From NCBI GenBank assembly GCA_029261065.1, contig JAJDCB010000028.1, positions 447 through 64,446 of the forward strand: 64,000 nt of DNA. Reading direction: 5' to 3'. Made by a program: the position numbers and the translations under genes. The notes below the pieces were generated by a model. The model made no database searches. It saw only the letters and a program-made list of their open reading frames with translations, and was not told the origin of the DNA. This document shows positions 40,838-58,485 of this stretch, piece after piece. How positions within the stretch are numbered: position 1 is the stretch's first letter; every line of letters begins with the position of its first letter. Origin of the DNA: Candidatus Omnitrophota bacterium. GTDB lineage: Bacteria > Omnitrophota > Gorgyraeia > Zapsychrales > Zapsychraceae.

Positions 40838-41019
40838 AGAAACATCCACCTATTTTATTACTGTTACTGCTTTTATTTCTTGTAACGCTCACATCTGGCT
40901 GTTCGACTTTGCTTCAGCTTCCAGTTGCCCTGGTAGAGGGAACATTTTCGTTGTTAGGGCAAATTATTAAGCTGGTTGGAAAGTTGCCTAAACCTCCGCC
41001 GGGAGTGTTTGGTATTTAG
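40816..41019 (+). CDS. Small lipoprotein-like peptide (hypothetical)
   Basis: MDGRLILKKHPPILLLLLLLFLVTLTSGCSTLL.. has an n-region, a hydrophobic core and an LTSGC lipobox-like site. The overlap with the upstream ORF makes the call uncertain. Confidence 0.3.
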   Translation: MDGRLILKKHPPILLLLLLLFLVTLTSGCSTLLQLPVALVEGTFSLLGQIIKLVGKLPKPPPGVFGI

Positions 41020-41097
41020 GGAAATAATATTGTCATCCTCGCGAAAGCGGGGAGCCAGTAATAGTATGACTTGTTGGAGATCCCCGCTTTCGAGGGG
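41018..41097. repeat. MITE/REP-like palindromic element, copy 1 (two inverted arms each carrying a CCCGCGAAAGCGGG hairpin)
   Basis: tgtcatcctcgcgaaagcggggagcc ..23 nt.. gatccccgctttcgaggggatgacaatg. The arms are reverse complements and each arm is itself a GAAA-loop hairpin. Confidence 0.7.
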
Positions 41098-41126
41098 ATG
41101 ACAATGTTTTTATTGATTGTATTTTT

Positions 41127-42875
41127 TTGTTGGTAGCACGAATGAAAAACAAAGACATTTCCAACCTATTTACCCGCATGGGCACCCTCCTTCAAATAAA
41201 AGGTGAAAACGTATTTAAAGTTCGCGCGTACTTCAAAGCCGCTGATAACATCAACAGTTTATCAGAAGATATTGCTATCTTTAGAGATGAAAAGCGATTA
41301 GGTGACATTCCTGGTGTGGGTAAAACGTTGCAAGAGAAGATTGGTGAGTATTTGGACACAGGAAAATTAACGGCTTATGATAAGTTGACTAAAGAAATTC
41401 CTGAGACAGTTTTAGATGTTATTTCCATTCCTTCGGTTGGACCTAAAAAGGCGAAATTATTTTTTGATGAATTAAAAGTTAAAGATATAGATATGCTTGA
41501 GAAATTGGCAAAGAACGGCAAGTTATTATCATTAGAAGGTATTAAGAGTAAGACGATCGAAAATGTTTTAAAGGGTATCAGAATTGTTCGTGAGGGCAAT
41601 AATCGGATGAATTTGGGTGCTGCGACAATGTGTGCTGAGGAGATTCTTGAACAGTTAAAGGTTTTAAAAGAAGTTAAACAGATATCTGTGGCCGGTTCTC
41701 TTCGTCGAGGACGAGAGACGATTGGTGATATTGATATTTTGGTGGCTTCTTCTGATGCTCAAAAAGTAATGGATGTCTTTGTCAGCTTACCAGAAGTTCG
41801 TTCGATTAATGCTCATGGAGAAACGAAGTCTTCTGTTATGACAAATAAAAATATCCAAGTGGATTTACGTGTGGTTGATTCTAACAATTTTGGAGCCGCA
41901 CTCCTTTATTTTACAGGAAGTAAAAATTTCAATATCAAATTGCGACAATTAGCGATCAAATCAAAAATGAAAGTCAGTGAGTATGGAATTTTTGATACCT
42001 CTTTAAAAAAGGAAAAATGTTTGGCGAGTAAGACTGAGAAAGAATGTTTTAAGGTTCTAGGGCTAGCTAACATTCCACCTGAATTAAGAGAAGACATTGG
42101 GATGGAAACTCTTTTTGATGAAAAAAAGAAAGTTAAGTTGCCTGCATTGATTGAACAAAAGGATATTCAAGGTGAGATTCATGTTCATTCGACATGGTCT
42201 GATGGGCGGCATTCGATTAAAGAAATGGCTGAAGCCGCTAGGAAACGTGGATACAGCTATTTAGCGATTAGTGATCATTCTTATAAACTGCGCATAGCTC
42301 GAGGTGTTTCGCCTGCTGATTTGATCAAAAAGAAAAAAGAGATTGATTCGCTTAATAAAACCTTTAAAAATTTTCGTATTTTATTTGGTAGTGAAGTAGA
42401 AATAGACAGTGAAGGAAATTTGGATTACAATGATAAAATCTTAAGCGAATTTGATATTGTCATTGGAGCGATTCATACAGGATTTGAACAAAGCTCTAAA
42501 CAACTGACACAACGGCTGATTAAGGCTTGTCAAAACAAACATGTGAATATGATTGCGCATCCCACTGGCGTTCATTTAGGAAAAAGAGATCCTTACGATT
42601 TTGATTTTAAAGCTGTTTGTCAGGCAGCCGTTGACAATAATGTCTGTTTAGAGATTAATTCATTTCCGATTCGCTTGGATCTTAATTCATCTAATATTTA
42701 TTTTGCTCGTGAGATGGGTGTTAAATTTGTTATTAACACAGATTCCCATCACATCAATCATCTAAACCATATGCGTTATGGAGTGACGCTTGCGCGGCGG
42801 GGGTGGTTGACGAAGAAGGATGTTGTGAATACGAAGGATGTGGGTGGGTTGCTTAAATCTTTTAAGAAAAGTTAA
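41127..42875 (+). CDS. polX: Family X DNA polymerase (Pol beta-like core) with C-terminal PHP phosphoesterase domain
   Basis: N-terminal HhH/Pol-beta motifs (..LGDIPGVGKTLQEKI.., ..GSLRRGRETIGDIDILV..) and C-terminal PHP (..IHVHSTWSDGRHSIKEMAEAARKRGYSYLAISDHS.., ..NTDSHH..). Confidence 0.85.
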   Translation: MLVARMKNKDISNLFTRMGTLLQIKGENVFKVRAYFKAADNINSLSEDIAIFRDEKRLGDIPGVGKTLQEKIGEYLDTGKLTAYDKLTKEIPETVLDVISIPSVGPKKAKLFFDELKVKDIDMLEKLAKNGKLLSLEGIKSKTIENVLKGIRIVREGNNRMNLGAATMCAEEILEQLKVLKEVKQISVAGSLRRGRETIGDIDILVASSDAQKVMDVFVSLPEVRSINAHGETKSSVMTNKNIQVDLRVVDSNNFGAALLYFTGSKNFNIKLRQLAIKSKMKVSEYGIFDTSLKKEKCLASKTEKECFKVLGLANIPPELREDIGMETLFDEKKKVKLPALIEQKDIQGEIHVHSTWSDGRHSIKEMAEAARKRGYSYLAISDHSYKLRIARGVSPADLIKKKKEIDSLNKTFKNFRILFGSEVEIDSEGNLDYNDKILSEFDIVIGAIHTGFEQSSKQLTQRLIKACQNKHVNMIAHPTGVHLGKRDPYDFDFKAVCQAAVDNNVCLEINSFPIRLDLNSSNIYFAREMGVKFVINTDSHHINHLNHMRYGVTLARRGWLTKKDVVNTKDVGGLLKSFKKS

Positions 42876-42881
42876 AGAAAT

Positions 42882-42960
42882 CATGTTATCCCCGCGAAAG
42901 TGGGGACCTCTTGAAGCTTATAATTATAAATGGATCCCCGCTTTCGCGGGAATGACAATG
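42882..42960. repeat. MITE/REP-like palindromic element, copy 2
   Basis: catgttatccccgcgaaagtggggacc ..24 nt.. ggatccccgctttcgcgggaatgacaatg. Confidence 0.7.
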
Positions 42961-42976
42961 TTGTATTTCATTCATC

Positions 42977-43858
42977 ATGAACTTTAAAGTTACCAATAAA
43001 CTCACACTAGCAAACAACACGAAACGCCTAGATATTTTGGCTCCTGCCATTGCCAAAAAAGTTAAGCCAGGGCAGTTTGTTAGCATTGTTATTGGCGAAG
43101 GGGATGAGCGTATTCCTCTAACAGTTATCGATCAAGATCTTAAAAAAGGCACTATTACTATTATCTTTAAAGAAGCTGGTGACTCGACAAAAAAGTTGGG
43201 CGAACTTTCTATTAATGATGACATTCAAACAATCTTAGGTCCTCTAGGGCGACCTTCTACAATAGAAAAAGTTGGGCGAATTGTTTGTATCACATCTGGA
43301 ATAGGGACGGCTCAGATTCTACCTATATGCCGAGCTTTAAAAAATGTAGGGAATAAGGTCGTTGGTATTGTGGGAGCGCGTACAAGACGTTCGATGATGG
43401 TTGAAGCGCAGATGAGATTGACGTGTGACAAATTATTTTGTACGACGGAAGATGGGAGTTATGAACGAAAAGGTGTTGTGACAGATGTTTTAACGGAGGT
43501 GTTAGAACGCAATGAAGTAAACCTGATCTATTGTATTGGTTCCGCTGAGATGATGGAGGCTGTGTCTCAGATGTCACGAGATAAAAAAATTAAAACGATT
43601 GTTCATTTAAATCCCATCATGGTTGATTGTATGGGGATGTGCGGATCGTGTCGTGTTAAAGTAGATGGAAAGTATGTATTAGGATGTATTGATGGTCCAG
43701 AGTTTGATGGACATCTAGTTGATTTTAAAGATTACAAAATTAGGCTTAATGCCTTTGAGGAAACAGAAGAATGGCGCAAGCACAGGTTGCAACCCAAGAC
43801 AAAGACAAACGAAACAAAAACTTTCAAGAGGTTTCTTTCGGGTATTCTAAGAAATTAG
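42977..43858 (+). CDS. NfnA/SudB-like FAD/NAD(P)-binding oxidoreductase subunit with C-terminal PyrK-type 2Fe-2S cluster
   Basis: ..LDILAPAIAKKVKPGQFVSIVIGEGDERIPLTVID.. (FNR-like beta-barrel) and ..CMGMCGSCRVKVDGKYVLGCIDGPEFDGH.. (PyrK-type cysteines). The 3' end overlaps the next gene by 88 nt in another frame. Confidence 0.7.
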   Translation: MNFKVTNKLTLANNTKRLDILAPAIAKKVKPGQFVSIVIGEGDERIPLTVIDQDLKKGTITIIFKEAGDSTKKLGELSINDDIQTILGPLGRPSTIEKVGRIVCITSGIGTAQILPICRALKNVGNKVVGIVGARTRRSMMVEAQMRLTCDKLFCTTEDGSYERKGVVTDVLTEVLERNEVNLIYCIGSAEMMEAVSQMSRDKKIKTIVHLNPIMVDCMGMCGSCRVKVDGKYVLGCIDGPEFDGHLVDFKDYKIRLNAFEETEEWRKHRLQPKTKTNETKTFKRFLSGILRN

Positions 43859-45132
43859 CCTCTGAGGAAGCCAGGCGTTGCCCGCAGTGTACGGATCCCG
43901 TGTGCATGCAGGGCTGTCCTTTGGGAATAAATATTCCAGGTTTTATTCGTAATTTACGTGAAGGCGATGTGGGGCGAGCTTATGAAGTGATTCGTGAGCA
44001 AAATCTCTTTCCTTCCATTTGTGGAAGGGTGTGTTCAGCCCCTTGTGAAGTATCATGTATTCTTACAGATGAAGGCTCTCCTATCGGGATTCGGGCTCTT
44101 GAACGTTATTGCTCAGACAATGGTCGCTCGCGTTCATCACGTAAAGATAAAATTTATCGAAAGGGTAAGAAGATCGCCGTTGTTGGTTCAGGTCCTTCGG
44201 GGATGTCTGCAGCTGCCCAACTGGCACAAAAGGGATATCAGGTTACAATATTTGAATCGCTCGATGCCCCTGGCGGTGTCTTACGTTATGGGATTCCAGA
44301 GTTTCGTATTCCTAAAAAGATTTTAGATTTTGAAATAAATGAAATCAGAAATTTAGGCGTTGATATTCAAACCAATTTTTTCATTGGTCAAAATGCATCG
44401 TTAGAAGATTTATTCGAGCAAGGTTTTGTTGCGGTATTGTTAGCAACGGGAGCAGGGACTCCTAAGTTTGTTGATTTGCCGGGTTCCAATTTGGGTGGGG
44501 TCTATTACGGAGAGGAATTTTTGATGCGTGTGAATCTAATCAAATCAACTCTGTTTAGTCGTACGACACCTAATTTTGTTTTGGGTCAAAGAATTGCCGT
44601 TATTGGTTCGGGTAATACGGCTCTTGATTGCGCGCGTGCTGCTAAACGCTTTGGTCGTGATGTCACCCTTATTTTTCGACGTACCGAAGATGATATGCGT
44701 ACACGACGAGATGAAAGAGATTTTGCAAAAGAAGAGGGGGTTGAGTTTGAACCTTTGGTTAAGCCGATCGAAATTTTAGCGGATCAAAATAATTTTGTTG
44801 ATGGATTAAAATGTGTGCGAATGGATTTTGCTGAATCTTCCAAAGATCAATGGGAACTTGCGCGGGTTCCTGATTCCGAATTTGTTTTAGAGGCTGATAC
44901 CGTCATAATCGCGGTTGGTCACATTCCTAATTTCTTAAAGTCTATGGATGCAAATAATCAATTAAATTTAAGTTCAGATGGAACAATCGAGGTTGACCCC
45001 AAGACTTCTCAAACAAGTATTCCTAAGGTGTTTGCTTCCGGTAATGTCGTAACAAATGCTGGTCCCATTGTCGAAGCAATTGCGGGAGGCAAGCAGGTGG
45101 CTGAGCGTATGGATCGGTATTTAAAGAGGTAG
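43771..45132 (+). CDS. NfnB / glutamate synthase small-subunit (GltD/SudA)-like NAD(P)H oxidoreductase
   Basis: N-terminal 4Fe-4S region ..ARRCPQCTDPVCMQGCPLGINIPGFI.., dinucleotide fold ..KIAVVGSGPSGMSAAAQLAQKGYQVTIFE.., second ..IAVIGSGNTALDCAR... Confidence 0.8.
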   Translation: MAQAQVATQDKDKRNKNFQEVSFGYSKKLASEEARRCPQCTDPVCMQGCPLGINIPGFIRNLREGDVGRAYEVIREQNLFPSICGRVCSAPCEVSCILTDEGSPIGIRALERYCSDNGRSRSSRKDKIYRKGKKIAVVGSGPSGMSAAAQLAQKGYQVTIFESLDAPGGVLRYGIPEFRIPKKILDFEINEIRNLGVDIQTNFFIGQNASLEDLFEQGFVAVLLATGAGTPKFVDLPGSNLGGVYYGEEFLMRVNLIKSTLFSRTTPNFVLGQRIAVIGSGNTALDCARAAKRFGRDVTLIFRRTEDDMRTRRDERDFAKEEGVEFEPLVKPIEILADQNNFVDGLKCVRMDFAESSKDQWELARVPDSEFVLEADTVIIAVGHIPNFLKSMDANNQLNLSSDGTIEVDPKTSQTSIPKVFASGNVVTNAGPIVEAIAGGKQVAERMDRYLKR

Positions 45133-45136
45133 TAAT

Positions 45137-45276
45137 GTTGTCATCCACGCGCCCAATGTCATCCCCGCCCCTTATGTCATTCCCGCGAAAGCGGGAATCC
45201 TACGGGGTAAACTCAAGCGGGAATCTCAAGATAAAAATACTATTACTGGATCCCCGCTTTCGCGGGGACGACACGA
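45137..45276. repeat. MITE/REP-like palindromic element, copy 3 (expanded, with internally duplicated arm fragments)
   Basis: gtcatccacgcgccc, gtcatccccgcccc, gtcattcccgcgaaagcgggaatcc, gcgggaatc ... ggatccccgctttcgcggggacgacacg. Confidence 0.65.
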
Positions 45277-45296
45277 TTATTATATCGATTAATTAA

Positions 45297-46124
45297 ATGA
45301 TGCAAAACTTCCAGACAAAAAAACAAAACGGCGAGAAGATTACGATGCTCACCGCCTATGATTATCCTATGGGCCGGTTGTTAGATGAAGCTGGTGTAGA
45401 TATTGTGTTAGTAGGCGACTCAGTTGCCAATGTGGTTTTAGGGTTGGAGTCAACGACTGATGTGGGGATGACGGAGATGTTGCATCATGCTAAAGCTGTG
45501 CGTCGTGGTGTTAAGCGCGCACTGTTGGTAGGAGATATGCCTTTTGATTCGTATCAAACGCATACAGAAGATGCTCTTATGAATGCGAAACGTTTTATAG
45601 ATGAGGCGGGATGTGATGCGGTTAAGTTAGAATGGTTTGATCAGTGTTTGGATGTGGCAGAAAATATTGTTAAGGCGGGTATTGCCGTTATGGGACATGT
45701 GGGTTTGACTCCCCAGACTGCTGAGAAGTTAGGCGGTTTTAAAGTTCAAGGAAAAGAGGCTGCTGATGCCCAGCTTATATTGAAACATGCGCAAGCTTTA
45801 GAAGAAGCGGGATGTTTTAGTATTGTTTTGGAGTGCATGCCAAGTGAGTTAGCTCAACTGATTACCAAGAAACTTTCTATTCCAACCATTGGCATTGGAG
45901 CGGGCGTTCATTGTGATGGTCAAGTTTTAGTCACGCATGATGCTCTTGGTTTAATAAGCCGTCATCATCCTAAGTTTGTGAAAACCTTTTTTGACCTTAA
46001 TAAGGGTGTTCTTGACGGTGTTAAGGTCTATTGTGATGAAGTGCGTAATGGTCAGTTTCCCGATGAGGAGCATTCGTTTGGGATGAATGCAGCTGAGTTG
46101 GAGAAGTTGGAGGGTGAAAAATAA
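45297..46124 (+). CDS. panB: 3-methyl-2-oxobutanoate hydroxymethyltransferase
   Basis: ..ITMLTAYDYPMGRLLDEAGVDIVLVGDSVANVVLGLESTTDVGMTEMLHHAKAVRRG.. collinear with PanB. Confidence 0.9.
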   Translation: MMQNFQTKKQNGEKITMLTAYDYPMGRLLDEAGVDIVLVGDSVANVVLGLESTTDVGMTEMLHHAKAVRRGVKRALLVGDMPFDSYQTHTEDALMNAKRFIDEAGCDAVKLEWFDQCLDVAENIVKAGIAVMGHVGLTPQTAEKLGGFKVQGKEAADAQLILKHAQALEEAGCFSIVLECMPSELAQLITKKLSIPTIGIGAGVHCDGQVLVTHDALGLISRHHPKFVKTFFDLNKGVLDGVKVYCDEVRNGQFPDEEHSFGMNAAELEKLEGEK

Positions 46125-46180
46125 AAGAAATGTGCAACTAGAACATGGTTTATTACTGTTGATGCACATAGAGGAATGTC

Positions 46181-46387
46181 ATGGATAAAAAACAAAATGT
46201 TGTATGGTATTTTCAAACGCCCGTACTCATTGTAAGCTTTTTTGTGATGGGTGTTTTTATGCTCCCACTATTGTGGTACGCACCACAGTGCTCGCAATCC
46301 AAGAAAATTTCCTACACGGTTTTCGCTATGGTTACGACGTTGGGCGTGTGTTTGGTGTTAACAAGTGTGTGTGTAGGGCGTCGGTAA
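46181..46387 (+). CDS. Small membrane protein (hypothetical, 68 aa)
   Basis: Two hydrophobic helices (VLIVSFFVMGVFMLPLLWY, VFAMVTTLGVCLVLTSVCV). Confidence 0.3.
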   Translation: MDKKQNVVWYFQTPVLIVSFFVMGVFMLPLLWYAPQCSQSKKISYTVFAMVTTLGVCLVLTSVCVGRR

Positions 46388-46389
46388 TA

Positions 46390-46654
46390 GTGCTCGGGAA
46401 GTAAATGAGGAAAAACGGTGGTCGAACGGCGTTCGCCGGGTTTGGTGGTCGGGGCAAGTAAAGGGATGTGGTGGTCAAGGTACCACCAAATATTACCTTT
46501 GTTAAAGAGCACCAATAGTTGTTCACTCCTATGACCACCGATTAGTATTTTCTTGCAAGACCACTAATCAGTGATCGCCTGCATGACCACTTTTATAATC
46601 TTTCTTTCATTAAATATTTGCATTCTTCATCGATTTTGTTAGAATACCCACCTT
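46390..46654 (+). promoter_or_regulatory. Structured ~260-nt leader upstream of the glycyl-tRNA synthetase gene with repeated GGTGGTC / GACCACC motifs and the hairpin GGTGGT-caaggt-ACCACC (possible T-box-like or other cis-regulatory RNA)
   Basis: ggtggtcGAACGgcGTTCGccgggtttggtggtcgggg ... gtggtggtcaaggtaccacc ... atgaccaccgattag ... agaccactaatcag ... catgaccact. No CDS >=60 aa fits. Confidence 0.3.
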
Positions 46655-47959: not shown

Positions 47960-47980
47960 GTAGTTGTTAGTAAAAATAAT

Positions 47981-48100
47981 CATGTCGTCTCCGCCCAATC
48001 TGTCATTCCCGTGAAGCGGGAATCAATGGGGGAAACTCCAGTGGGGATCCAGTTTTCATTTCTATTCTTTTGAGGTTCCCGCTTTCGCGGGAACGACACG
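47981..48100. repeat. MITE/REP-like palindromic element, copy 4 (expanded)
   Basis: catgtcgtctccgcccaatctgtcattcccgtgaagcgggaatc ... ggttcccgctttcgcgggaacgacacg. Confidence 0.65.
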
Positions 48101-48168
48101 ATTTCTATTACGGATGACCGCTGATCAGAACCAAGTAATAATTAATAAACACAATAGGAGTGTCACAC

Positions 48169-50967
48169 ATGGCGAAGAAATACGTTTATTCTTTCGGCGG
48201 CGGAAAAGCCGACGGAACAGCAAAATTAAGAAATTTATTAGGGGGAAAAGGAGCTAATTTAGCGGAAATGGCGGGTCACAAAGATTTACGTTTGCCTGTA
48301 CCTCCTGGATTTACAGTCACGACAGAAGTCTGCACACATTACTACGACAATAAAAAGAAGTATCCTACCGGTCTAAAAGAACAAGTCAACACAGCGATTA
48401 AGAAAATAGAAAAATTAATGGGAAAAAAATTTGGCGATCCTAAAAATCCTCTTTTAGTATCCGTTCGTTCGGGAGCGCGTGTTTCTATGCCAGGGATGAT
48501 GGAAACGGTATTAAATGTTGGTTTAACAGAAAAAACAATTCCAGGTTTGGCTGAAAAGTTTGGTAGTGAGCGATTTGCCTACGATGCGTACCGTCGATTA
48601 ATTACGATGTACTCTGATGTTGTTATGGAAAAATCAGCTGGTATTGAACCAAAAGAAAATCAAGGTATTCGTCATCAATTAGATCATTTGCTTGCAGAGA
48701 AAAAGAAAAGTGTTGGAGCTCAAAGCGATGCGGATTTAAGTGTTGAAGATTTAAAAGAGTTGATCGCCGTTTACAAAACACGTATCAAAGAAGTTTTGGG
48801 GAAGTCATTTCCAGATGATGCTGAAAAACAACTTTGGGGTGGAGTTACCGCTGTTTTCCAGTCATGGATGGGAAAAAGAGCGATTTCTTACAGGAGGATT
48901 GAAAGTATTCCAGGGGGGTGGGGAACAGCTGTTAATGTTCAAGCTATGGCTTTTGGAAACACGGGTGACAATTCTTCAACAGGGGTTGCCTTCACACGTA
49001 ATCCAGGTAATGGGGAAAATAGTTTTTATGGGGAATATTTGGTGAATGCTCAAGGGGAAGACGTTGTTGCTGGAACACGGACACCGTCACCTATTAATAG
49101 TTATTCTACGAGTGATCAAAATGACGATCACATAACATTGCAACAATCCGAACCAAAAATCTATAAACAATTAGAAAGCATTCGTAAACGTTTAGAAAAA
49201 CATTACAAAGATATGCAAGATATTGAGTTTACTGTTGAAGAAGGTACTCTATATATGTTGCAATGTCGTAGTGGAAAACGTAATGGGCCAGCGGCTGTTC
49301 GTATGGCGGTTGATATGGTTCGTGAGAAATTAATTAATAAAGAAACAGCTGTTACACGCGTAACACCTTCCCAATTGGATGAACTTCTTCATCCTGTTAT
49401 TGATCCCGCTGAAGAAAAGCAAGCTAAATTTTTAGGAAAAGGTTTGCCAGCAGGTCCTGGTGGGGCATCTGGTCAGATCGTTTTCTCAGCTGATGATGCT
49501 GTAAAATGGCGTGGAGAAAACAAACAAGTTATTTTGGTTCGCGCAGAAACAAATCCAGAGGACGTTGAAGGGATGCGTGCTTCAGAAGCCATTCTAACGG
49601 CACGTGGTGGAATGACATCTCATGCTGCATTAGTTGCGCGCGGTTGGGGGAAATGTTGTATTGTTGGATGTTCCAGTATGGATATCAATTATGAAAGTCG
49701 CACAATGTCTGTGGGTGGTGAAAATCTAAAAGAAGGAGATTGGATTACACTTAATGGAACAAAGGGGACGTTCTATGAAACGCGTCTTCCGATGATTGAT
49801 GCTTCAGATGAAAATACATACTTTAACGATTTTCTAAAAATCTGTGATTCCATTAGAACGCTTAATGTTCGTACTAATGCGGATACTCCAGAAGATGCTG
49901 CAAAAGCAAGAACTTTCGGAGCTGAAGGTATTGGACTGTTTCGTACAGAGCATATGTTTTACGGAAAGCATTCTGAAGAGCCTCTTTTCATATTACGTAA
50001 GATGATTATGTCTAAAGATGTGGAAGAGCGTCGTCGTGCATTAGATGAGTTGTATCCTCATGTAAAGAAAGATATGAAGGGAACAATGGCGGCCATGAAT
50101 GGTTTTCCTGTAACCATTCGATTGTTGGATCCGCCACTTCATGAGTTTGTTCCACATAAGAAAGATGCTTTAAAGGATTTGGCTAATAGTTTGGGGATTA
50201 CCCTTGAGCAATTAAATAAAAGAACATCTGCTCTTGGAGAATCCAATCCGATGATGGGTCATCGTGGTGTTCGTTTAGGGGTGACGTATCCAGAAATTAC
50301 AGAGATGCAAGTCCGTGCTATTTTGGAATCAACGGCAGAGTTATTAAAGGAAGGGAAGAAGATCTTTCCTGAAATTATGGTGCCAGTTGTGTGTGCGGAT
50401 ACCGAATTACAAGATCAAAAAAATATCGTAAATCGTGTTTACGCTGAGGTAAAATCCAAGTACAATGTAAAAAAGATTCCATATATGTTTGGAACGATGA
50501 TTGAAATTCCGCGAGCTGCTCTTACAGCCGATAAAATTGCAGAGGATGCAGAATTTTTCTCATTTGGAACAAACGATTTAACTCAAATGAGTTTTGGGTT
50601 TTCTCGCGACGACATCGGTGGTTTTTTACCTGATTATTTAGAACGTGGTGTTCTTCCGGGTGATCCTTTTGCAAGTATTGATGTTCAAGGTGTCGGACAG
50701 TTGATACAATACGGAGTTGAGCGTGGCCGATCAACGCGAAGCAATTTAAAGATTGGTATTTGCGGGGAGCATGGAGGAGATCCTGAGTCAATCGACTTTT
50801 GTCAAAAGGTTGGTATGGATTATGTTAGTTGCTCACCTTACCGTGTGCCTATTGCAAGGTTAGCGGCAGCACAGTCCGCGTTGGCGAATAAGGGCAGCAA
50901 GAGTGTGAAGAAGGGTAAGAAGAAGGTTGTTGCGAAGAAGAAAGTGACGAAGAAAAAACGAAAGTAA
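48169..50967 (+). CDS. ppdK: Pyruvate, phosphate dikinase with a C-terminal Lys-rich extension
   Basis: ATG at 48169, 8 nt after the AGGAG RBS (the ORF track starts at an upstream GTG). ..KKYVYSFGGGKADG.., ..GGMTSHAALVARGWGKCCIVGC.. (phosphohistidine domain), ..FGTNDLTQMSFGFSRDD.. (PEP-utilising domain). The tail ..KGSKSVKKGKKKVVAKKKVTKKKRK is not part of canonical PPDK. Confidence 0.9.
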   Translation: MAKKYVYSFGGGKADGTAKLRNLLGGKGANLAEMAGHKDLRLPVPPGFTVTTEVCTHYYDNKKKYPTGLKEQVNTAIKKIEKLMGKKFGDPKNPLLVSVRSGARVSMPGMMETVLNVGLTEKTIPGLAEKFGSERFAYDAYRRLITMYSDVVMEKSAGIEPKENQGIRHQLDHLLAEKKKSVGAQSDADLSVEDLKELIAVYKTRIKEVLGKSFPDDAEKQLWGGVTAVFQSWMGKRAISYRRIESIPGGWGTAVNVQAMAFGNTGDNSSTGVAFTRNPGNGENSFYGEYLVNAQGEDVVAGTRTPSPINSYSTSDQNDDHITLQQSEPKIYKQLESIRKRLEKHYKDMQDIEFTVEEGTLYMLQCRSGKRNGPAAVRMAVDMVREKLINKETAVTRVTPSQLDELLHPVIDPAEEKQAKFLGKGLPAGPGGASGQIVFSADDAVKWRGENKQVILVRAETNPEDVEGMRASEAILTARGGMTSHAALVARGWGKCCIVGCSSMDINYESRTMSVGGENLKEGDWITLNGTKGTFYETRLPMIDASDENTYFNDFLKICDSIRTLNVRTNADTPEDAAKARTFGAEGIGLFRTEHMFYGKHSEEPLFILRKMIMSKDVEERRRALDELYPHVKKDMKGTMAAMNGFPVTIRLLDPPLHEFVPHKKDALKDLANSLGITLEQLNKRTSALGESNPMMGHRGVRLGVTYPEITEMQVRAILESTAELLKEGKKIFPEIMVPVVCADTELQDQKNIVNRVYAEVKSKYNVKKIPYMFGTMIEIPRAALTADKIAEDAEFFSFGTNDLTQMSFGFSRDDIGGFLPDYLERGVLPGDPFASIDVQGVGQLIQYGVERGRSTRSNLKIGICGEHGGDPESIDFCQKVGMDYVSCSPYRVPIARLAAAQSALANKGSKSVKKGKKKVVAKKKVTKKKRK

Positions 50968-50998
50968 TCGTGTCGTTCGTTTAAAAAATAAAACTAAT

Positions 50999-51079
50999 CA
51001 TGTTATCCCTGCGAAAGCGGGGATCCATTAATAGTGTTAATATAACTTTTTTGAGGTCCCCGCTTTCGCGGGGATGACA
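50999..51079. repeat. MITE/REP-like palindromic element, copy 5
   Basis: catgttatccctgcgaaagcggggatcc ..24 nt.. gaggtccccgctttcgcggggatgacac. Confidence 0.7.
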
Positions 51080-51106
51080 CTATTTCGTTAACATTAAATA
51101 GCTCCT

Positions 51107-51928
51107 ATGGAAGATTCTATAAAATCCTATCTTAAAGATATCCGCCCAATCCCGTTGTTGACGGCGCAAGAAGAGATCGAACTTTCTACGTTAGTCCTGC
51201 AAGGCGATATGGAAGCGCGGGATAAAATGATTCGTTCGAATCTTCGTTTAGTCATTAGCATTGCCAAACGTTACGTTAATCTGGGTGTTCCTTTAAGTGA
51301 TTTGATTGAAGAGGGGAATATTGGATTGATGAAAAGTGTTGAGAAGTTTGATCCTACTAGGGGGTTTCGTTTCTCAACATATTCGGCATGGTGGATTAAA
51401 CAAGGCATTTCAAGAGCGATTATTGATCAAGGAAAAATGATTCGTGTGCCCGTGTATTTAAATGAAGAAATTCTTAAATACAAAAAAACGGTTGAGAAAT
51501 TAACGCATCAATTAAAACGAACGCCTACGGTGCCGGAGGTGGCTAAGAGGTTAAAGGTTTCTGTTGATAAGATAAGAAGTCTCGTTAATGCCATTGCCAA
51601 GATGTCTAGTTTAGATGCTCCTATAGGAGAAGATGGTGATGGTCAGGTGAAAGATATCATAGAAGATCCCAATGCGGTTGCCCCGGATCAACAATTAGAG
51701 GTGTTTTTTAATAAAGAACGAGCGATTAGTTTTTTAGAGATGCTTACAGATCGCGAACGAAAAATTTTAGAATTACGTTATGGTCTCATTGATGGCGAAG
51801 CGCATACATTAGCTGATATCGCAAAGACACTAGGCGTTTCTCGTGAACGTGTTCGTCAAATAGAAGCAGCAACAATTAAAAAGATTAAACAGGTCATTGA
51901 TCAAAAAGATAAAGAAGAAGGTGAATAA
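51107..51928 (+). CDS. RNA polymerase sigma-70 family factor (RpoD/RpoS-like group, lacking region 1.1)
   Basis: Region 2: ..IRSNLRLVISIAKRYVNLGVPLSDLIEEGNIGLMKSVEKFDPTRGFRFSTYSAWWIKQGISRAI... Region 4.2 HTH: ..TLADIAKTLGVSRERVRQIEAATIKKIK... 273 aa. Confidence 0.9.
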   Translation: MEDSIKSYLKDIRPIPLLTAQEEIELSTLVLQGDMEARDKMIRSNLRLVISIAKRYVNLGVPLSDLIEEGNIGLMKSVEKFDPTRGFRFSTYSAWWIKQGISRAIIDQGKMIRVPVYLNEEILKYKKTVEKLTHQLKRTPTVPEVAKRLKVSVDKIRSLVNAIAKMSSLDAPIGEDGDGQVKDIIEDPNAVAPDQQLEVFFNKERAISFLEMLTDRERKILELRYGLIDGEAHTLADIAKTLGVSRERVRQIEAATIKKIKQVIDQKDKEEGE

Positions 51929-52775
51929 AAAGACCAGTAAACTAACCTTTGTTTTAATTATTCCTCGCTTTGAAGATATTTTCCACTCCTATTACGCGGG
52001 CGAAATCATTCGCGGTGTAACCCTCTCTGTAAGTCGTCTGAATGCTGATTTACTTATTCATATTACTGATCGAGGAGATCACAGTACGTGGTTGACTACA
52101 TCATTTTTTAACAAGCATTCTATCGATGGTATTATCTTTGCAGATATTGACAATGATTTATCCGTTGTCAAACGAGCTATCCGACGCGGTATTCCATGCG
52201 TCATTCTAAATAATTTACTTAAAGAGCCTATTAATTGTGTATGCGTGGATAACAAAAAGGCCGCGTATGAAGTTGTCAAACAAATGATGTCCTTTGGTCA
52301 TAAACAGATTGCTACGATTGCTGGAGATGTATCAACTCAGGCTGGATTTATGCGCTTGGAAGGGTATCGCGAGGCGTTGTTAGAGAATAATATTTCTATT
52401 CCAAGAAGTTACATTACATTTGGTGATTTTTTAAGGACGCCAGCACGATTAGCGGCTCAGAAGTTATTAAAATTAAAAAGACGACCTACAGCCATTTTTG
52501 CTGCTTCTGATGTGATGGCCTTAGAGTTAATGGATGTGGCGAAAAAATTAAAGATAAAAGTGCCTGAAGAGCTTTCGATTATTGGTTTTGATGATAACCC
52601 GCTTAATGCCACAGCTCCAACGGGATTGGCTACTGTTTCGCAGCCCTTGCTTGAAATGGGGCGTGTGGGGATGGAGAATTTGTATAAGGTTAGTCGTGGT
52701 AAAGCTAAGTTGCCGGTCAAAATAGTTTTGCCAACAAAGTTTATTAAACGTAAGTCGATGTCAAAGATTAAATAA
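51897..52775 (+). CDS. LacI-family periplasmic-binding-fold (sugar-binding) domain protein without an N-terminal HTH
   Basis: The whole product aligns to the LacI/GalR C-terminal ligand-binding domain (..IDGIIFAD.., ..IATIAGD..GF.., ..PTAIFAASDVMALELMD.., ..SIIGFDDNP..). There is no DNA-binding HTH. The real start may be the GTG at 51921; the TTG at 51897 overlaps the sigma-factor 3' end. Confidence 0.6.
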   Translation: MIKKIKKKVNKKTSKLTFVLIIPRFEDIFHSYYAGEIIRGVTLSVSRLNADLLIHITDRGDHSTWLTTSFFNKHSIDGIIFADIDNDLSVVKRAIRRGIPCVILNNLLKEPINCVCVDNKKAAYEVVKQMMSFGHKQIATIAGDVSTQAGFMRLEGYREALLENNISIPRSYITFGDFLRTPARLAAQKLLKLKRRPTAIFAASDVMALELMDVAKKLKIKVPEELSIIGFDDNPLNATAPTGLATVSQPLLEMGRVGMENLYKVSRGKAKLPVKIVLPTKFIKRKSMSKIK

Positions 52776-52802
52776 AAGGATTGTTAAAGAAAGGATTTTG
52801 TT

Positions 52803-53336
52803 ATGGCGAGTTCTATTAAGAAAACAGACTTAAAGAAGCATATTCGAGACGTTCAAGATTTTCCGAAAGAGGGGATTGTTTTTAAGGATATTACGACTCT
52901 GTTGCAAAATAAAGAAGCCTTAAAGAAGTCCGTTGATTTATTAGCTAAAAAATTTCGTAAAGAAAATATCGAATTAGTTGTTGGTGTTGAAGCTCGTGGT
53001 TTTATTTTTGGGGCGGCTCTTGCTTATAAGTTAGGGACAGGATTTGTGCCGGTACGTAAGAAGGGCAAGCTTCCTTATAAAACACGAAGTGTTACATACG
53101 AATTAGAATATGGAAAAGATAGTTTAGAAATTCATGAAGATGCTATTCCAGCGAAAACTCGTGTGTTAATCGTTGATGATTTATTGGCCACAGGGGGCAC
53201 TATTAAAGCTGTTACGGAATTGGTTAAAGAGCAAAAGGCTGTTATTGCAGGATTAGCTTTTTTGGTGGAATTAAAGTTTCTTAAGGGTAAAAATAAGTTA
53301 AAAGATTTTGATGTTTATTCTGTTTTAAAATATTAA
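52803..53336 (+). CDS. apt: Adenine phosphoribosyltransferase
   Basis: ..VVGVEARGFIFGAALAYKLGTGFVPVRKKGKLP.. and the PRPP motif ..VLIVDDLLATGGTIKAV... Confidence 0.9.
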   Translation: MASSIKKTDLKKHIRDVQDFPKEGIVFKDITTLLQNKEALKKSVDLLAKKFRKENIELVVGVEARGFIFGAALAYKLGTGFVPVRKKGKLPYKTRSVTYELEYGKDSLEIHEDAIPAKTRVLIVDDLLATGGTIKAVTELVKEQKAVIAGLAFLVELKFLKGKNKLKDFDVYSVLKY

Positions 53337-53364
53337 ATGTTGTTGAAAAAAGATATTTTCGCAA

Positions 53365-53392
53365 GGGACGGAGCTTATGCTTCGTCCCCTCA
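53365..53392 (+). terminator. Candidate intrinsic terminator downstream of apt
   Basis: GGGACG-gagcttatgctt-CGTCCC hairpin followed by a T-rich run (ctcattatttat). Confidence 0.45.
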
Positions 53393-53398
53393 TTATTT

Positions 53399-55852
53399 AT
53401 GATAAAAAACATATTGTCTAAAAATTATTTTCTCATACTTCTTATGTTGTTGGTCACGTTTTTGGCCTTTTATCCAACATTAAAGGCTGATTTTGTCCAT
53501 TGGGATGACGAGGGGCATTTGCTTGAAAATGTTGTTATTCGATCTCTCGATGCTGAGCATATACGAGAAATTTTTAGTCAAAGCGTGCAAAATGTTTATA
53601 TTCCTTTAACGACGCTCAGCTTTGCTTTGGAATATCATTTTTTTGGGTACAATCCATTTGTCTATCATCTAACAAATCTTTTATTGCATTTATTAATAGT
53701 GTTATTAATTTATGGATCCGCGCGTTTATTGGGATTGGGACTTCTAGCTGCTTTTTGTGCGGGAACTCTTTTTGGGATTCATCCCATGCATGTAGAGTCA
53801 GTAGCGTGGATCACGGAACGCAAAGATGTTTTGTATGCTTTTTTTTACATGTTAGCCATATTTAGTTATTTGCTTTTTATGAGAAAGAATGAACAGGCTT
53901 TTCGGTCAAACGCTAAACTCTCTGTAGGGTATCTCGTATTTGTTTTTTTATTTGGAGCTTTAAGTATGTTGGCTAAACCCATGGCCCTTAGTTTGCCGTT
54001 GATCCTTTTGTGGATCGATTGGTATAAGGATAGAAAAATTGATATTAAGGTTCTTTTAGAGAAATTACCATTAGGGATAATGATTGGAGCTGTAACGTGG
54101 ATTACTTACTCTCAACATGTGCGCGTTCCTGGAGATGAAACCGGCTCTGCGGGGCTTATCTGGATTTGGACTTTTATTTTTTATCTTAAACAGTTTTTTA
54201 TCCCATTGTTTAATGTTCCTATATATCGTCTTAGCTATCCCATTAGTATTGTTGAACCTGAATATCTTTTTTCTCTCATCGCATTTTTACTTATCGGTTT
54301 TAGTGTTTTTCGATTAAGAAAATATCGTCTTTACATTTTTGCTCTTGGATATTTTTTGTTCTCCATTTTCTTTTTATTACGGTTCGATGCTGCGAAAGAT
54401 ACAAATGTTGTTGCGGATCGATTTATGTATTTGCCGAGTTTGGGCTTTTGTTTGCTGTTTGGTTTTCTCATGGAAGTTTTTTTAAAGAAAGCAGCCATCG
54501 CGCAACAAAGGTTTCGTCTGTTTGTCGTCGGATTTTTGATTGTTAGTGTTTTTACTTTTTTAGGTGTGCGCACGTATAAACAATGTCAGATTTGGGACAA
54601 TACCATTGCTCTTTGGAAACATGAATTAAAATATTTTCCTAAAGAACATATTGCTTTAAACAATTTGGGTGTTGAATTGCAGGGGCAAGAGTCGTTTAAA
54701 GAGGCTGTAGATCAATATAGTCATGTTCTTCGGGTTAAGGCTGAAGGATTTGAAGTTAAGGTTAATGAGAATATTCTTCAAGATATGAATCAAATCAATG
54801 AAGTGATTGGTTTATATGAGCGTGCGGTTCGTTCTAAACCGGATTATGTGCGAGCCTTTTACAATCTTGGGAATCTTTACAAAGAGATTGGTTTATATGC
54901 TGAGGCGGTAAGATTATTTAATCAAGCGATTGCTACAGATCCCTACTATAAAGATTCTTTTATGAATTTGGGTAATTTATATAGAGATGTGGGAGAGGCG
55001 CAAAAAGCCATTGAATCTTATACAAAATATGTGCAAGGATTGCCAGATGATGAAGATGTTCGTGTTTATGTTGTGTTAGCTTATAATAAAGCCTTAGAAA
55101 TGACGCCCAAGATTGAGAAGGCTTACATCTTATATAAGCAAGCGCGTGAAGAGGCGTTAAATGAATTTACAAGGCTTATTAATACTAAGCCTGCTCGAGC
55201 CACTTCATTTTTCAATTTGGGGTTTTTGTACAGCGAGATTGGAGATTTAGAGCGGGCTATTTCTGCTTATCGAACAGTTCTGGATATCAATCCTCATCAT
55301 GGCCATGCGTTGTATTCTCTGGGGAATATATTCCAATTTCAAGGCCAATATAGTCAAGCCATGCAGATGTATCAAAAATCTTTGAAAGTCCTTAGTAGGC
55401 ATGTGGATACGTACACTGATATGGGTACAATATTAGAGAAGCAGGGAAAGGGCAAGGAGGCTCGAAATCGCTACGAACAAGCTCTTGATGTGGATGTGGA
55501 TAACCATAAGGCTTTATATCGCTTAGCATATTTAGATGCGCAGCAAGGCCTTACACACAAAGCTTTAGAGGCTTATTTACATCTTATTGAGTTAAATTAT
55601 CGTAACGCTAATGCTTACAATGATTTAGGTGTAATTTATGTTAAACTGGAAGATTCAACAAATGCTCAAAAAGCCTTTGAAAGGGCTGTTGAGTTGGATC
55701 AAAATAATGTTGACGCGTGGATTAATTTGTCTAACTTATCCTTCATCCAGAAAGATTACCAAAAAGCGATTGAGTATTTAGATGAGGCTGTATTTATTGG
55801 GTATGAGGCACCGGTGGCGTATTTGAAGGCGCTGGAAGCGTATCGGAATTGA
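53399..55852 (+). CDS. TMTC-like protein: N-terminal multi-pass membrane domain (DUF1736/GT39-like) fused to C-terminal TPR repeats; putative protein O-glycosyltransferase
   Basis: N-terminal ~420 aa with ~10 TM segments and the motif ..KADFVHWDDEGHLLEN.. . C-terminal ~400 aa of canonical TPRs (..AFYNLGNLYKEIGLYAEAVRLFNQAIATDP..). Confidence 0.6.
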   Translation: MIKNILSKNYFLILLMLLVTFLAFYPTLKADFVHWDDEGHLLENVVIRSLDAEHIREIFSQSVQNVYIPLTTLSFALEYHFFGYNPFVYHLTNLLLHLLIVLLIYGSARLLGLGLLAAFCAGTLFGIHPMHVESVAWITERKDVLYAFFYMLAIFSYLLFMRKNEQAFRSNAKLSVGYLVFVFLFGALSMLAKPMALSLPLILLWIDWYKDRKIDIKVLLEKLPLGIMIGAVTWITYSQHVRVPGDETGSAGLIWIWTFIFYLKQFFIPLFNVPIYRLSYPISIVEPEYLFSLIAFLLIGFSVFRLRKYRLYIFALGYFLFSIFFLLRFDAAKDTNVVADRFMYLPSLGFCLLFGFLMEVFLKKAAIAQQRFRLFVVGFLIVSVFTFLGVRTYKQCQIWDNTIALWKHELKYFPKEHIALNNLGVELQGQESFKEAVDQYSHVLRVKAEGFEVKVNENILQDMNQINEVIGLYERAVRSKPDYVRAFYNLGNLYKEIGLYAEAVRLFNQAIATDPYYKDSFMNLGNLYRDVGEAQKAIESYTKYVQGLPDDEDVRVYVVLAYNKALEMTPKIEKAYILYKQAREEALNEFTRLINTKPARATSFFNLGFLYSEIGDLERAISAYRTVLDINPHHGHALYSLGNIFQFQGQYSQAMQMYQKSLKVLSRHVDTYTDMGTILEKQGKGKEARNRYEQALDVDVDNHKALYRLAYLDAQQGLTHKALEAYLHLIELNYRNANAYNDLGVIYVKLEDSTNAQKAFERAVELDQNNVDAWINLSNLSFIQKDYQKAIEYLDEAVFIGYEAPVAYLKALEAYRN

Positions 55853-55868
55853 AGGTTTTCCAGGAATA

Positions 55869-56039
55869 ACCAAGATACAAGGTAGAAGAAATTCCAGCCT
55901 GCGGCTGGAACCTCGCCTTTGGCGGGGCAAAAAATAACCATTTTCCAATATTTCAATAACCAAATGTTTGGTGTTTTTAAGTATTGGTTATTGATTATTT
56001 TTTGTATCTTGTGCCTTGTATCTTGGTTATTCCTGCCAG
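55869..56039. repeat. Second type of MITE-like element: 23-bp terminal inverted repeats CCAGGAATAACCAAGATACAAGG flanking ~125 bp with internal hairpins, inserted between the TMTC-like gene and tRNA-Arg
   Basis: 55869-55891 ccaggaataaccaagatacaagg vs 56017-56039 ccttgtatcttggttattcctgg are exact reverse complements. Internal hairpins: ccagcctgcggctgg, and aataaccaaa..ttggttatt. Confidence 0.6.
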
Positions 56040-56055
56040 GTTTTTTTGTAAATTT

Positions 56056-56129
56056 GCGCCTGTAGCTCAGATGGATAGAGCGCGGCCCTCCTAAGGCCGG
56101 CGTCGGAGGTTCGACTCCCCCCAGGCGCA
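56056..56129 (+). tRNA. tRNA-Arg (anticodon CCU)
   Basis: GCGCCTG acceptor stem, D-arm TAGCTCAGATGGATAGAGC, anticodon stem-loop CGGCC-CTCCTAA-GGCCG (CCT), T-arm GGAGGTTCGACTCCCCC, 3' CAGGCGC + A. 74 nt; CCA not encoded. Confidence 0.9.
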
Positions 56130-56157
56130 TAATTTTGAATCCACCGTATAATAAGAG

Positions 56158-56194
56158 AACATCTCATCCCCGCAGAAGCGGGGATCTAGAGATA
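56158..56194. repeat. Solo half-copy of the MITE/REP-like hairpin element just downstream of tRNA-Arg
   Basis: aacatctcatccccgcagaagcggggatctagag has a single arm with the CCCGC-agaa-GCGGG hairpin. Confidence 0.6.
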
Positions 56195-56372
56195 TAAGGA
56201 CTTACGACAAAACTTTATAATGATGCATTTGAAGAACTTTCTCTTTTTTATGTTGTAATTTCTGAACATCAAGAAAAAATATTTTTAATGATAATTTTTG
56301 CAGACATCAAATCTTATTGAAAACAAACAAGTTGCAACAAAAAATGTTGTTAAAAATAAATTCAAAATATAT

Positions 56373-58051: not shown

Positions 58052-58088
58052 CGTCCTTACTGCTAATGCGGTAAGGACGTTTTTTTTA
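58052..58088 (+). terminator. Rho-independent terminator of the porin gene
   Basis: cgtccttac-tgctaatgcg-gtaaggacg (9-bp perfect stem, 10-nt loop) followed by a run of 9 T. Confidence 0.85.
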
Positions 58089-58153
58089 TGCACATTTTAT
58101 GCATAAAAATAACAGACGTTTTTTTATGCACATTTTATGCATAAAAATAACGA
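58077..58153 (+). repeat. 38-bp tandem duplication containing the palindromic motif ATGCA-N7-TGCAT twice
   Basis: gacgtttttttttatgcacattttatgcataaaaataaca / gacgtttttttatgcacattttatgcataaaaataacga. Each copy contains atgcacattttatgcat. Confidence 0.7.
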
Positions 58154-58485
58154 ACAATTTTTATGTTGAAGAACTAATTCAAAAATAGCGAGCATTTTAT
58201 TTAGAAGCCTTGACGTAAAAATCAAAATAAGAAAGTATAATTTTGATCAAAAAAACGTTTTATTTGTAAAAACCTTTTTCTTAACCGAGCTCTCGACGAG
58301 GAGTTATTGAAAATAGTTGTAAAAAAGTTAAAATACTGTTTCTTTTTAAATAATAATTTGTTAATATAAAAACAATCAAAAAGCTTTCCGATGTATTTAA
58401 GAGATATGACTTTACGGAAATATAGCTTTTTATTGAAAGACACACTTCTCGCAAGAAAATTTAGAATAGTTCATTTAGGAAAATT

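Follow-up and report, generated by a model that had tools for sequence, protein, structure and literature searches.

The stretch of DNA analysed here (the window) comprises 64 kb of a Candidatus Omnitrophota genome (GenBank assembly GCA_029261065.1, contig JAJDCB010000028.1); all element positions given are window positions. It contains five inverted-repeat doublets and one solo arm, and the copies are placed behind stop codons, between co-directional genes. The arms are hairpin repeats of the family formed by the Neisseria Transformation Sequence (NTS) and the degenerate Ssn-related motif (SRM). Each doublet is asymmetric and joins one arm of a form here termed A to one of a form termed B. 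The elements and their gene context are as follows:

41026–41108, doublet 1: simple, with a 17-nt spacer; arms at 41031–41058 (+, A-type) and 41076–41103 (−, B-type); between the stop codon of a 67-aa ORF (41019) and the start of polX (~41143).
42879–42962, doublet 2: simple, in the opposite orientation; arms at 42884–42911 (+, B-type, GTT variant) and 42930–42957 (−, A-type, fits the published SRM regular expression); between the polX stop codon (42875) and the next start codon (42977), that of a gene for a DHODB-type Fe-S subunit.
45135–45278, doublet 3: composite; left halves L1 (45139–45151) and L2 (45157–45168) with an 18-nt period; full inner arm at 45175–45200 (+), an exact dRS3 with ATTCCC-N8-GGGAAT at 45179–45198; CGGGG-TAAACTC at 45203–45214; right half at 45217–45225; spacer; right arm at 45248–45273 (−, A-type); between the gene for an NfnB/GltD-like oxidoreductase and panB.
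47979–48103, doublet 4: composite; outer left half at 47983–47994; degenerate inner arm at 48001–48024 (+, TGAA loop); GGGGGAAACTCC at 48028–48039; outer right half at 48040–48052; spacer; right arm at 48074–48098 (−, B-type); between the gene for a class II aminoacyl-tRNA synthetase (aaRS) and ppdK.
50966–50979 (+), arm remnant AATCGTGTCGTTCG: the beginning of an arm (9 nt) preceded by its outer flank, likened to the right arm of doublet 4.
50996–51084, doublet 5: simple; arms at 51001–51028 (+, A-type, GTT variant) and 51052–51079 (−, B-type, fits the SRM regular expression); between the ppdK stop codon and the start of the sigma-70 gene (51107).
56157–56191 (+), solo arm: TCTCATCCCCGC-AGAA-GCGGGGATC, with a different loop (CAGAAG); 32 nt downstream of the tRNA-Arg(CCT) gene (56055–56130); the next gene is porin-like.

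Pattern and profile searches recovered all the arms of the five full copies and the solo arm described in the original prediction. In the window, the sequence CCCGCGAAAGCGGG with up to one mismatch gave nine matches (0.00 expected), the 25-mer core of the arm with up to three mismatches gave seven (0 expected), and the looser pattern TCCCCGC-N4-GCGGGGA, which now included the solo arm, gave ten (0.61 expected). A profile hidden Markov model (HMM) built from ten arms found 11 arms at E<0.001, these ten and the degenerate inner one of copy 4, and no further arm in the 64 kb at that threshold. Within the window the arm family is therefore confined to 41–56 kb, in agreement with the predicted absence from 18–41 kb. 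The arm had been described as 25–28 bp long. Its core stood, but not its length: the aligned arms share a conserved 5-nt outer flank, AAT-C/A-R, before TGTCRT, which extends them to ~33 nt with the full form AAT-C/A-R followed by TGTCRTCCCCGCGAAAGCGGGGATCC. The hexamer ACGACA at 56205–56210 is a possible vestige of the partner end of the solo arm. The 14-nt remnant AATCGTGTCGTTCG overlaps the ppdK stop codon (50965–50967), and suggests the trace of an older insertion into the gap between ppdK and the sigma-70 gene. The copies had been placed in six consecutive gaps, which is not strictly the case, since other gaps carry no arm, among them the 530-bp one from panB to the class II aaRS gene (hisS), four small ones and those in the interval 52.7–56.0 kb. 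Their position after stop codons was confirmed, with two corrections of gene identity: the gene following copy 2 codes for the DHODB-type subunit and that preceding copy 4 for the aaRS. The same copies are also present in L121 (Logan SRR15505515), an assembly made separately from this organism. A search of Rfam at the gathering threshold matched the tRNA-Arg alone and none of the elements.

The identity of the arm emerged from a scan, in one genome per species, with the 22-mer GTCRTYCCCGCGAAAGCGGGRA derived from the window. Among the matches listed, exact copies were present in more than 120 genome stretches from more than 15 phyla, including Alpha-, Beta-, Gamma- and Deltaproteobacteria, Bacteroidota, Dehalococcoidia and other Chloroflexota, Parcubacteria, Saccharibacteria, Omnitrophota, Planctomycetota, Acidobacteriota, Nitrospirota, Verrucomicrobiota, Cloacimonadota, Zixibacteria, Vampirovibrionales and Hydrogenedentota. 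They were also present in more than 120 IMG/VR viral or prophage contigs (L131–L250), in which the prophage calls may include host flanks. When 156 of these arms were aligned, conservation covered exactly Y-GTCATTCCCGCGAAAGCGGGAATCCAG and nothing beyond it. The cross-phylum consensus, YGTCATTCCCGCGAAAGCGGGAATCCAG, is the 28-nt NTS/SRM, an extended form of the Neisseria dRS3, as published. The local distribution initially proposed thus holds inside the window but not overall, since the arm is the NTS/SRM of many phyla. Literature searches with the arm sequence or its peptide translations returned nothing relevant.

According to Chenal et al. (Nat Commun 2025, PMC11893778), the NTS is CGTCATTCCCGCGMAVGCGGGAATCYRG, an extended dRS3, and the degenerate SRM is present in many bacteria. 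SsnA, a 94-aa single-domain GIY-YIG protein, binds the motif as single-stranded DNA (ssDNA) only and in one orientation only, and nicks it a few nucleotides upstream of the motif, while RNA is not a substrate. The 5′ GTC and the C after the palindrome are critical for both binding and cleavage. The same paper states that ssnA genes typically have the motif on their flanks, that in Neisseria Ssn lowers the integration of transforming DNA carrying the motif, and that no Ssn is detectable in 19% of SRM-rich genomes (PMC11893778). In the window, the C after the palindrome is present in all 11 arms and the upstream GTC in eight. The SRM pattern, given in that paper as HGTCWYN(0-2)YYVSBRHN(0-5)WNVSBRGN(0-2)RNCYNB, fits three of the 11 arms (41031+, 42930− and 51052–51079−), against 0.12 expected in shuffled sequences. 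None of the 11 matches the 28-nt NTS with one mismatch or fewer, the search criterion of the paper. Judged by their sequence, the window arms are a diverged NTS subtype with ATCCCCGC stems.

The predicted folding of arms into hairpins and of units into long hairpins was borne out. Each doublet folded as a long DNA hairpin; those of the three simple doublets, folded as ssDNA, were near-perfect, with energies of −19.7 to −26.4 kcal/mol and z-scores of −5.6 to −8.6. The solo arm gave an 8-bp stem closed by a tetraloop, at −10.4 kcal/mol (z −5.5); its loop, CAGAAG, differs from the GAAA attributed to every arm. Among 427 arms, the stem positions covaried: ATT..AAT occurred 195 times and ATC..GAT/GAC 53 times, while mixed combinations occurred at most seven times. 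Compensatory variants were also found, namely ATTCCCAC/GTGGGAAT (CAC/GTG; eight times) and GTC..GAC or GTT..AAC (16 times). It follows from this covariation that the hairpin itself is under selection.

The history of the insertions was examined in five syntenic relatives (L122, L125/126, L127, L128 and L129/130), whose PPDK is 79–83% identical to that of the window. The named relatives of the window PPDK are all Candidatus Omnitrophota, while an exact-protein look-up of the window PanB found no record. All five loci keep the gene order, except that the slot separating panB from the aaRS gene varies, and no arm was found in ~100 kb of their sequence, every gap being arm-free. Gap lengths in L122 and in the window compare as follows:

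47-aa ORF to polX: 21 bp in L122, 123 bp in the window.
polX to the DHODB-type subunit gene: 3 bp in L122, 101 bp in the window.
NfnB-like gene to panB: 11 bp in L122, 164 bp in the window.
aaRS gene to ppdK: 58 bp in L122, 200 bp in the window.
ppdK to the sigma-70 gene: 169 bp, arm-free, in L122, 139 bp in the window.

In L129, a mere 3 bp separate ppdK from the sigma gene. Since these gaps are arm-free in the relatives, the elements were gained in the lineage of the window; its copies are recent insertions, and their presence is polymorphic. In the comparison of syntenic loci suggested in the original prediction, all five relatives lacked the arm at every gap, so that by the criteria set there the element counts as mobile, being variable in position. 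The intergenic DNA of the relatives is too diverged for empty-site alignments to define the exact insertion points. Target-site duplications, also proposed as a check, were not found: by eye, no direct repeats flank the copies, and the sequences outside AATCR...YGATT differ at all five doublets. Of the earlier view of a mobile repeat resembling REP sequences or miniature inverted-repeat transposable elements (MITEs), dispersal and mobility therefore stood, given the five relatives without copies, while the MITE signature of flanking direct repeats did not.

The two arm forms revealed the unit of insertion. The A form, ...GGGGATCC-AKTAATAGT, is clear in the left arms of copies 1 and 5 and the right arm of copy 3, and approximate in the right arm of copy 2 and the outer arm of copy 4. 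The B form, ...GGGRACCT-CAAAA, is clear in the right arms of copies 4 and 5, and approximate in the left arm of copy 2, the right arm of copy 1 and the outer arm of copy 3. Copies 1, 4 and 5 begin with the A arm on their left, whereas copies 2 and 3 have it on their right. This asymmetry, together with the occurrence of both orientations, indicates that the whole doublet behaves as the inserted unit. The gap of 530 bp at 46125–46654, which is non-coding and separates panB from the class II aaRS gene, is the variable slot of the otherwise conserved cluster; in L122–L124 and L127 it holds an 88-aa ORF and a gene for a DUF1016_N/SNase protein, and in L125, L128 and L129 other sets of genes.

The empty sites bear on a first alternative, namely that the elements are cis-regulatory RNA hairpins (terminators, attenuators or stabilisers of mRNA 3′-ends) that evolved for these operons. 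Each copy does lie just after a stop codon between co-directional genes, and the transcript hairpin would be very stable. However, the sites are empty in five syntenic relatives, where some gaps measure merely 3–21 bp, and the matches listed place the 22-mer in unrelated surroundings in viral contigs and in genomes of more than 15 phyla. The terminator role initially envisaged was not supported either: no copy gave a terminator-like score or has a T-run, none of the 12 terminator-like matches in 40.5–57 kb coincides with an element, and their number is no higher than in shuffled sequences. In addition, SsnA is inactive on RNA (PMC11893778). An origin as RNA regulators is therefore improbable, while a secondary mRNA-stabilising effect of the elements is possible. 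The outward end of the arm, ATGACA, resembles a −35 hexamer and, at copy 1 (41098–41125), is followed 16 nt downstream by TATTTT, just upstream of polX; such −35/−10 pairing was not consistent at the other copies, and its counts were no higher than in shuffles.

To learn which genes accompany the arm elsewhere, ~2 Mb of loci picked solely by the 22-mer, both genomic and from IMG/VR viral contigs, were searched by tblastn with the two GIY-YIG proteins first seen beside arms. Six GIY-YIG genes were found (~85–112 aa; alignments of 85–96 aa), five of them closely bracketed by convergent arms (L067, L178, L184, L213 and L142); a seventh adjoins an arm in the metagenome contig L263. In other genomes, therefore, the arm is associated with ssn-like genes in an arm-ssn-arm arrangement. 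Eight convergent arm pairs are spaced 200–2500 bp apart; three of them enclose a GIY-YIG gene and one encloses frr by chance, and inspection of the remaining ORFs, which were not scanned with Pfam, revealed no transposase-like gene between these pairs. Among arm pairs within 100 bp, 71 are convergent (GTCAT ends outward), eight divergent and 15 in the same orientation, with a median spacer of 27 nt. Distant pairs in L016, L018 and L024 enclose ordinary housekeeping genes (by eye, holB-like, frr, tgt-like and lpdA-like) and offered no lead to a transposase. The window doublets have the arm-ssn-arm architecture minus the gene, and so look like non-autonomous derivatives of it.

Several further observations were made in these loci. 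The viral contigs L142, L178, L184 and L213 hold arm-ssn-arm units; phages could be the vehicle by which the arm spreads across phyla. L069, an Omnitrophota metagenome-assembled genome (nzgw330), has one of the six ssn-like genes (7260–7550, minus strand), surrounded at 6680–7620 by at least five variant arms with a longer loop (GTCATTCCCGC-ATGCCGTTA-GCGGGAATCC), paired with a different hairpin (GGATCCCCGA...TCGGGGATGACA). These variants indicate that several arm subtypes exist inside one phylum. In the Parcubacteria locus L018 (6519–7439), a doublet is apparently translated in frame within an ORF (...VIPAKAGIQ...DSRLRGND...) whose N-terminus resembles, by eye only, a tRNA-guanine transglycosylase; the case recalls the Rickettsia palindromic elements inside genes.

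The nature of the gene partner bears on a second alternative, according to which the elements are strict REPINs, i.e. REP doublets moved by a RAYT (a Y1/HUH tyrosine transposase) whose gene lies at another place in the genome. The REP sequences linked to RAYTs are lineage-specific and usually bear a 5′ GTAG-type tag, whereas the tag here is TGTC, in a sequence common to many phyla. The inverted doublets, short spacers and long-hairpin folds are those by which REPINs are defined, and the copies are intergenic without target-site duplications, as this alternative would have it. Nevertheless, the gene partner of the NTS, both as documented and as reproduced here, is a GIY-YIG nuclease: the distant convergent pairs enclosed such a gene in three of eight cases and frr in one, and no transposase-like ORF came to light by inspection, made without a Pfam scan. 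That a RAYT moves these elements is accordingly a slim prospect.

A third alternative sees in the arms att-like sites at which an IS110/Piv-type recombinase or a filamentous phage recombines. It draws on Neisseria, in which dRS3 is the integration site of filamentous prophages via a phage-encoded recombinase (PMC1797815). In the window, only one arm is an exact dRS3, and no recombinase gene or prophage adjoins any copy, the neighbours being housekeeping genes; moreover, such a role would account for the use of the repeats and not for their existence or spread, which makes it a very unlikely explanation. Least credible is a classical MITE derived from an insertion sequence (IS) that has a DDE transposase and the same terminal inverted repeats, since, despite such repeats, small size, intergenic location and presence/absence polymorphism, there is no target-site duplication, each supposed terminal repeat is an autonomous hairpin that is also found alone, and inspection by eye of ~2.4 Mb of arm-bearing loci revealed no DDE gene between arms.

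The six elements are probably copies of the NTS/SRM hairpin repeat in Omnitrophota, the doublets being non-autonomous and having spread as units. As ssDNA, each arm folds into an 8-bp stem with a GAAA loop and with 5′-TGTC and 3′ C flanks, the determinant that small single-domain GIY-YIG Ssn nucleases bind before nicking the ssDNA a few nucleotides upstream. The doublets would correspond to an IS-like arm-ssn-arm unit that lacks the gene. They would have spread whole, in either orientation and without target-site duplication, to permissive intergenic gaps after the split from the sequenced relatives. The genome presumably encodes a cognate Ssn, which would drive the mobility of the doublets in trans and whose cut site may be covered by the conserved AATCR flank. 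Whenever the locus became single-stranded (as incoming DNA, or in replication and repair gaps), this Ssn would cut beside each arm. By way of such cuts, the doublets may modulate recombination around the genes they flank, from polX to ppdK. Any effect at the RNA level, through hairpins at the 3′ ends of the mRNAs upstream, would be of secondary importance.

Several points weigh against this explanation. To our knowledge, natural competence is not established for Omnitrophota. Within the 64 kb, tblastn with two arm-flanked GIY-YIG proteins detected no homolog of ssn (best E=1.9, chance matches only); a GIY-YIG regular expression gave no match there either. The window arms differ from the strict NTS at 3–8 of 28 positions, eight of the 11 fail the SRM pattern by one or two positions, and the two with GTT in place of GTC may not be cleavable. 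The arm-flanked GIY-YIG proteins matched only the Pfam family GIY-YIG (PF01541) and no NCBIfam model; NCBIfam and PDB searches with the Omnitrophota protein pointed to no specific family and gave a single weak match, to UPF0213. Finally, Ssn is not known to mobilise the repeats, an idea that PMC11893778 raises only as a hypothesis.

The composite copies 3 and 4 bear on how the elements spread. Their expansion by nested, duplicated half arms, noted in the original prediction at 45137 and 47981, was confirmed. Copy 3 reads L1 (TGTCATCCACGCG), CCCAA, L2 (TGTCATCCCCGC), CCCTTA, full arm, TA, CGGGG-TAAACTC, AA, GCGGGAATC, spacer and right arm; Tandem Repeats Finder (TRF) detected in it a period of 18 nt with 2.3 copies. 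Copy 4 has an inner arm and a GGGG-K-AAACTC piece as in copy 3, with one left half fewer. Beyond the window, 34 of 503 arms from many phyla have a left half in the same orientation within 40 nt upstream, against 6–9 for control positions and orientations. These upstream halves consist of a 6–9 nt flank plus GTCATYCCCGC and recur with a period of 18–21 nt (arm loci L001–L294; examples are L002:1650–1740, L018:7010–7070, L026:130–180 and L037:2760–2815). This asymmetry in favour of left halves speaks for a mechanism that has a direction and is connected with the side upstream of the arm, on which Ssn nicks.

Nested composites with the TAAACTC(C)A-GCGGGAATC module were also found in the viral contig L235 (5930–6070; 63% GC) and the metagenome contig L268 (~1480–1600; 43% GC), in addition to those of the window (45139–45225 and 47983–48052; 39% GC), the three contigs being mutually unrelated. 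The short segments on either side of the inner arm show covariation (CCCC-TTA/TA-C-GGGG, CCCC-GTG/CAC-GA-GGG and CCCCCTGG/CCAG-A-GG). The composite 18-mer TAAACTCCAGCGGGAATC occurred once in IMG/VR, in the contig already known. This recurrence across phyla and unrelated contigs indicates that the expanded copies are not a local accident; both insertion into the loop of an older arm and a nick-primed duplication stalled at the hairpin fit their structure.

A wider proposal, which we regard as doubtful, is that the Ssn GIY-YIG nickase mobilises the doublets in trans, and that arm-ssn-arm represents a new class of prokaryotic mobile element built on a GIY-YIG enzyme, whose REPIN-like offspring cross phyla, possibly via phages. 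In that event, the left-half duplications and the nested composite (left halves, arm and GGG-TAAACTC-GCGGGAATC) would be footprints of the mechanism, which might be nick-primed strand displacement that stalls at the hairpin, or insertion into an arm already present, at its single-stranded loop.

The system known from PMC11893778 and the window elements share the core sequence, the oriented hairpin with a 5′ GTC and a 3′ C, the extragenic clustering around genes and, elsewhere, the bracketing of a ~95-aa single-domain GIY-YIG gene. They differ in the divergence of the window arms (ATCCCCGC stems, outer AATCR flank), in the Omnitrophota host, in the almost exclusive occurrence of asymmetric convergent doublets and in the lack of an ssn gene within the 64 kb. 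The Neisseria NIME (dRS3-RS-dRS3; Parkhill 2000; Bentley 2007, PMC1797815) also combines intergenic GC-rich hairpins with AT-richer spacers. It forms, however, long arrays of many dRS3 with 50–150-bp RS families (PMC1797815), while the window has isolated doublets with spacers of 17 to ~25 nt and no such array, and only 45179–45198 is an exact dRS3, the other arms having ATCCCC/GGGGAT. The elements also resemble IS200/IS605, a comparison drawn in PMC11893778 as well: the hairpins are subterminal and recognised in ssDNA form, the DNA is cut a few nucleotides to their 5′ side, and no target site is duplicated; an HUH transposase and TnpB are, however, both lacking here. The manner of working is also like that of REPIN-RAYT and BIME, in that hairpin doublets act as non-autonomous units, a single-copy enzyme gene is flanked by the same repeats, no target site is duplicated and ssDNA biology is probable; here, however, the enzyme is GIY-YIG and not Y1/HUH, and the repeat is shared across phyla rather than lineage-specific. 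The REPIN-RAYT system and the E. coli REP/BIME are reportedly the subject of work by Bertels and Rainey in 2011, Nunvar in 2010 and Ton-Hoang in 2012.

The arm also resembles a CRISPR repeat, presumably the enterobacterial type I-E one, with the core TCCCCGCG-CC-AGCGGGGAT; the arm core TCCCCGCG-AA-AGCGGGGAT is like it at 17 of 19 positions (e.g. in arm 51052–51079), and the composite piece CGGGG-TAAAC (45203–45214) is similar to its 3′ end, GGGGATAAACC. The repeat string was confirmed in CRISPR papers, and the likeness may be a coincidence between GC-rich hairpins. Two other features of the window were noted. Its first ~18000 positions hold, on the minus strand, a giant ORF that runs off the window start, in one frame with a single stop codon in 18 kb; it codes for Cys-rich repeats (CGDGI...ETCDDGNN) with tandem periods of 339, 105 and 99 bp, and matches Pfam DUF4215 (E=2.7e-40). 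At 58076–58162, just downstream of the porin-like gene, an AT-rich 38-bp unit holding the palindrome ATGCACATTTTATGCAT is repeated twice (97% matches).

The NTS/SRM-Ssn family is known, having been described in 2025 with roots in dRS3 and NIME from 2000; the Omnitrophota example is new. In practice, recognising the arm during annotation avoids spurious small ORFs, since its frames yield peptides such as VIPAKAGIQ, SFPRKRES and DSRLRGND. The system, so far characterised mainly in Neisseria and a few Pseudomonadati, is extended here to an uncultivated phylum. The filled and empty sites in the window and five relatives provide direct comparative evidence of recent gain, which the available text of PMC11893778 had only hypothesised, and the duplicated half arms, like the nested composites, may offer clues to the way in which this family spreads. 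If Ssn does mobilise the repeats, the pair would be a source of matched nucleases and hairpins for ssDNA tools and would constitute a simple, widespread, ssDNA-based mobile system.

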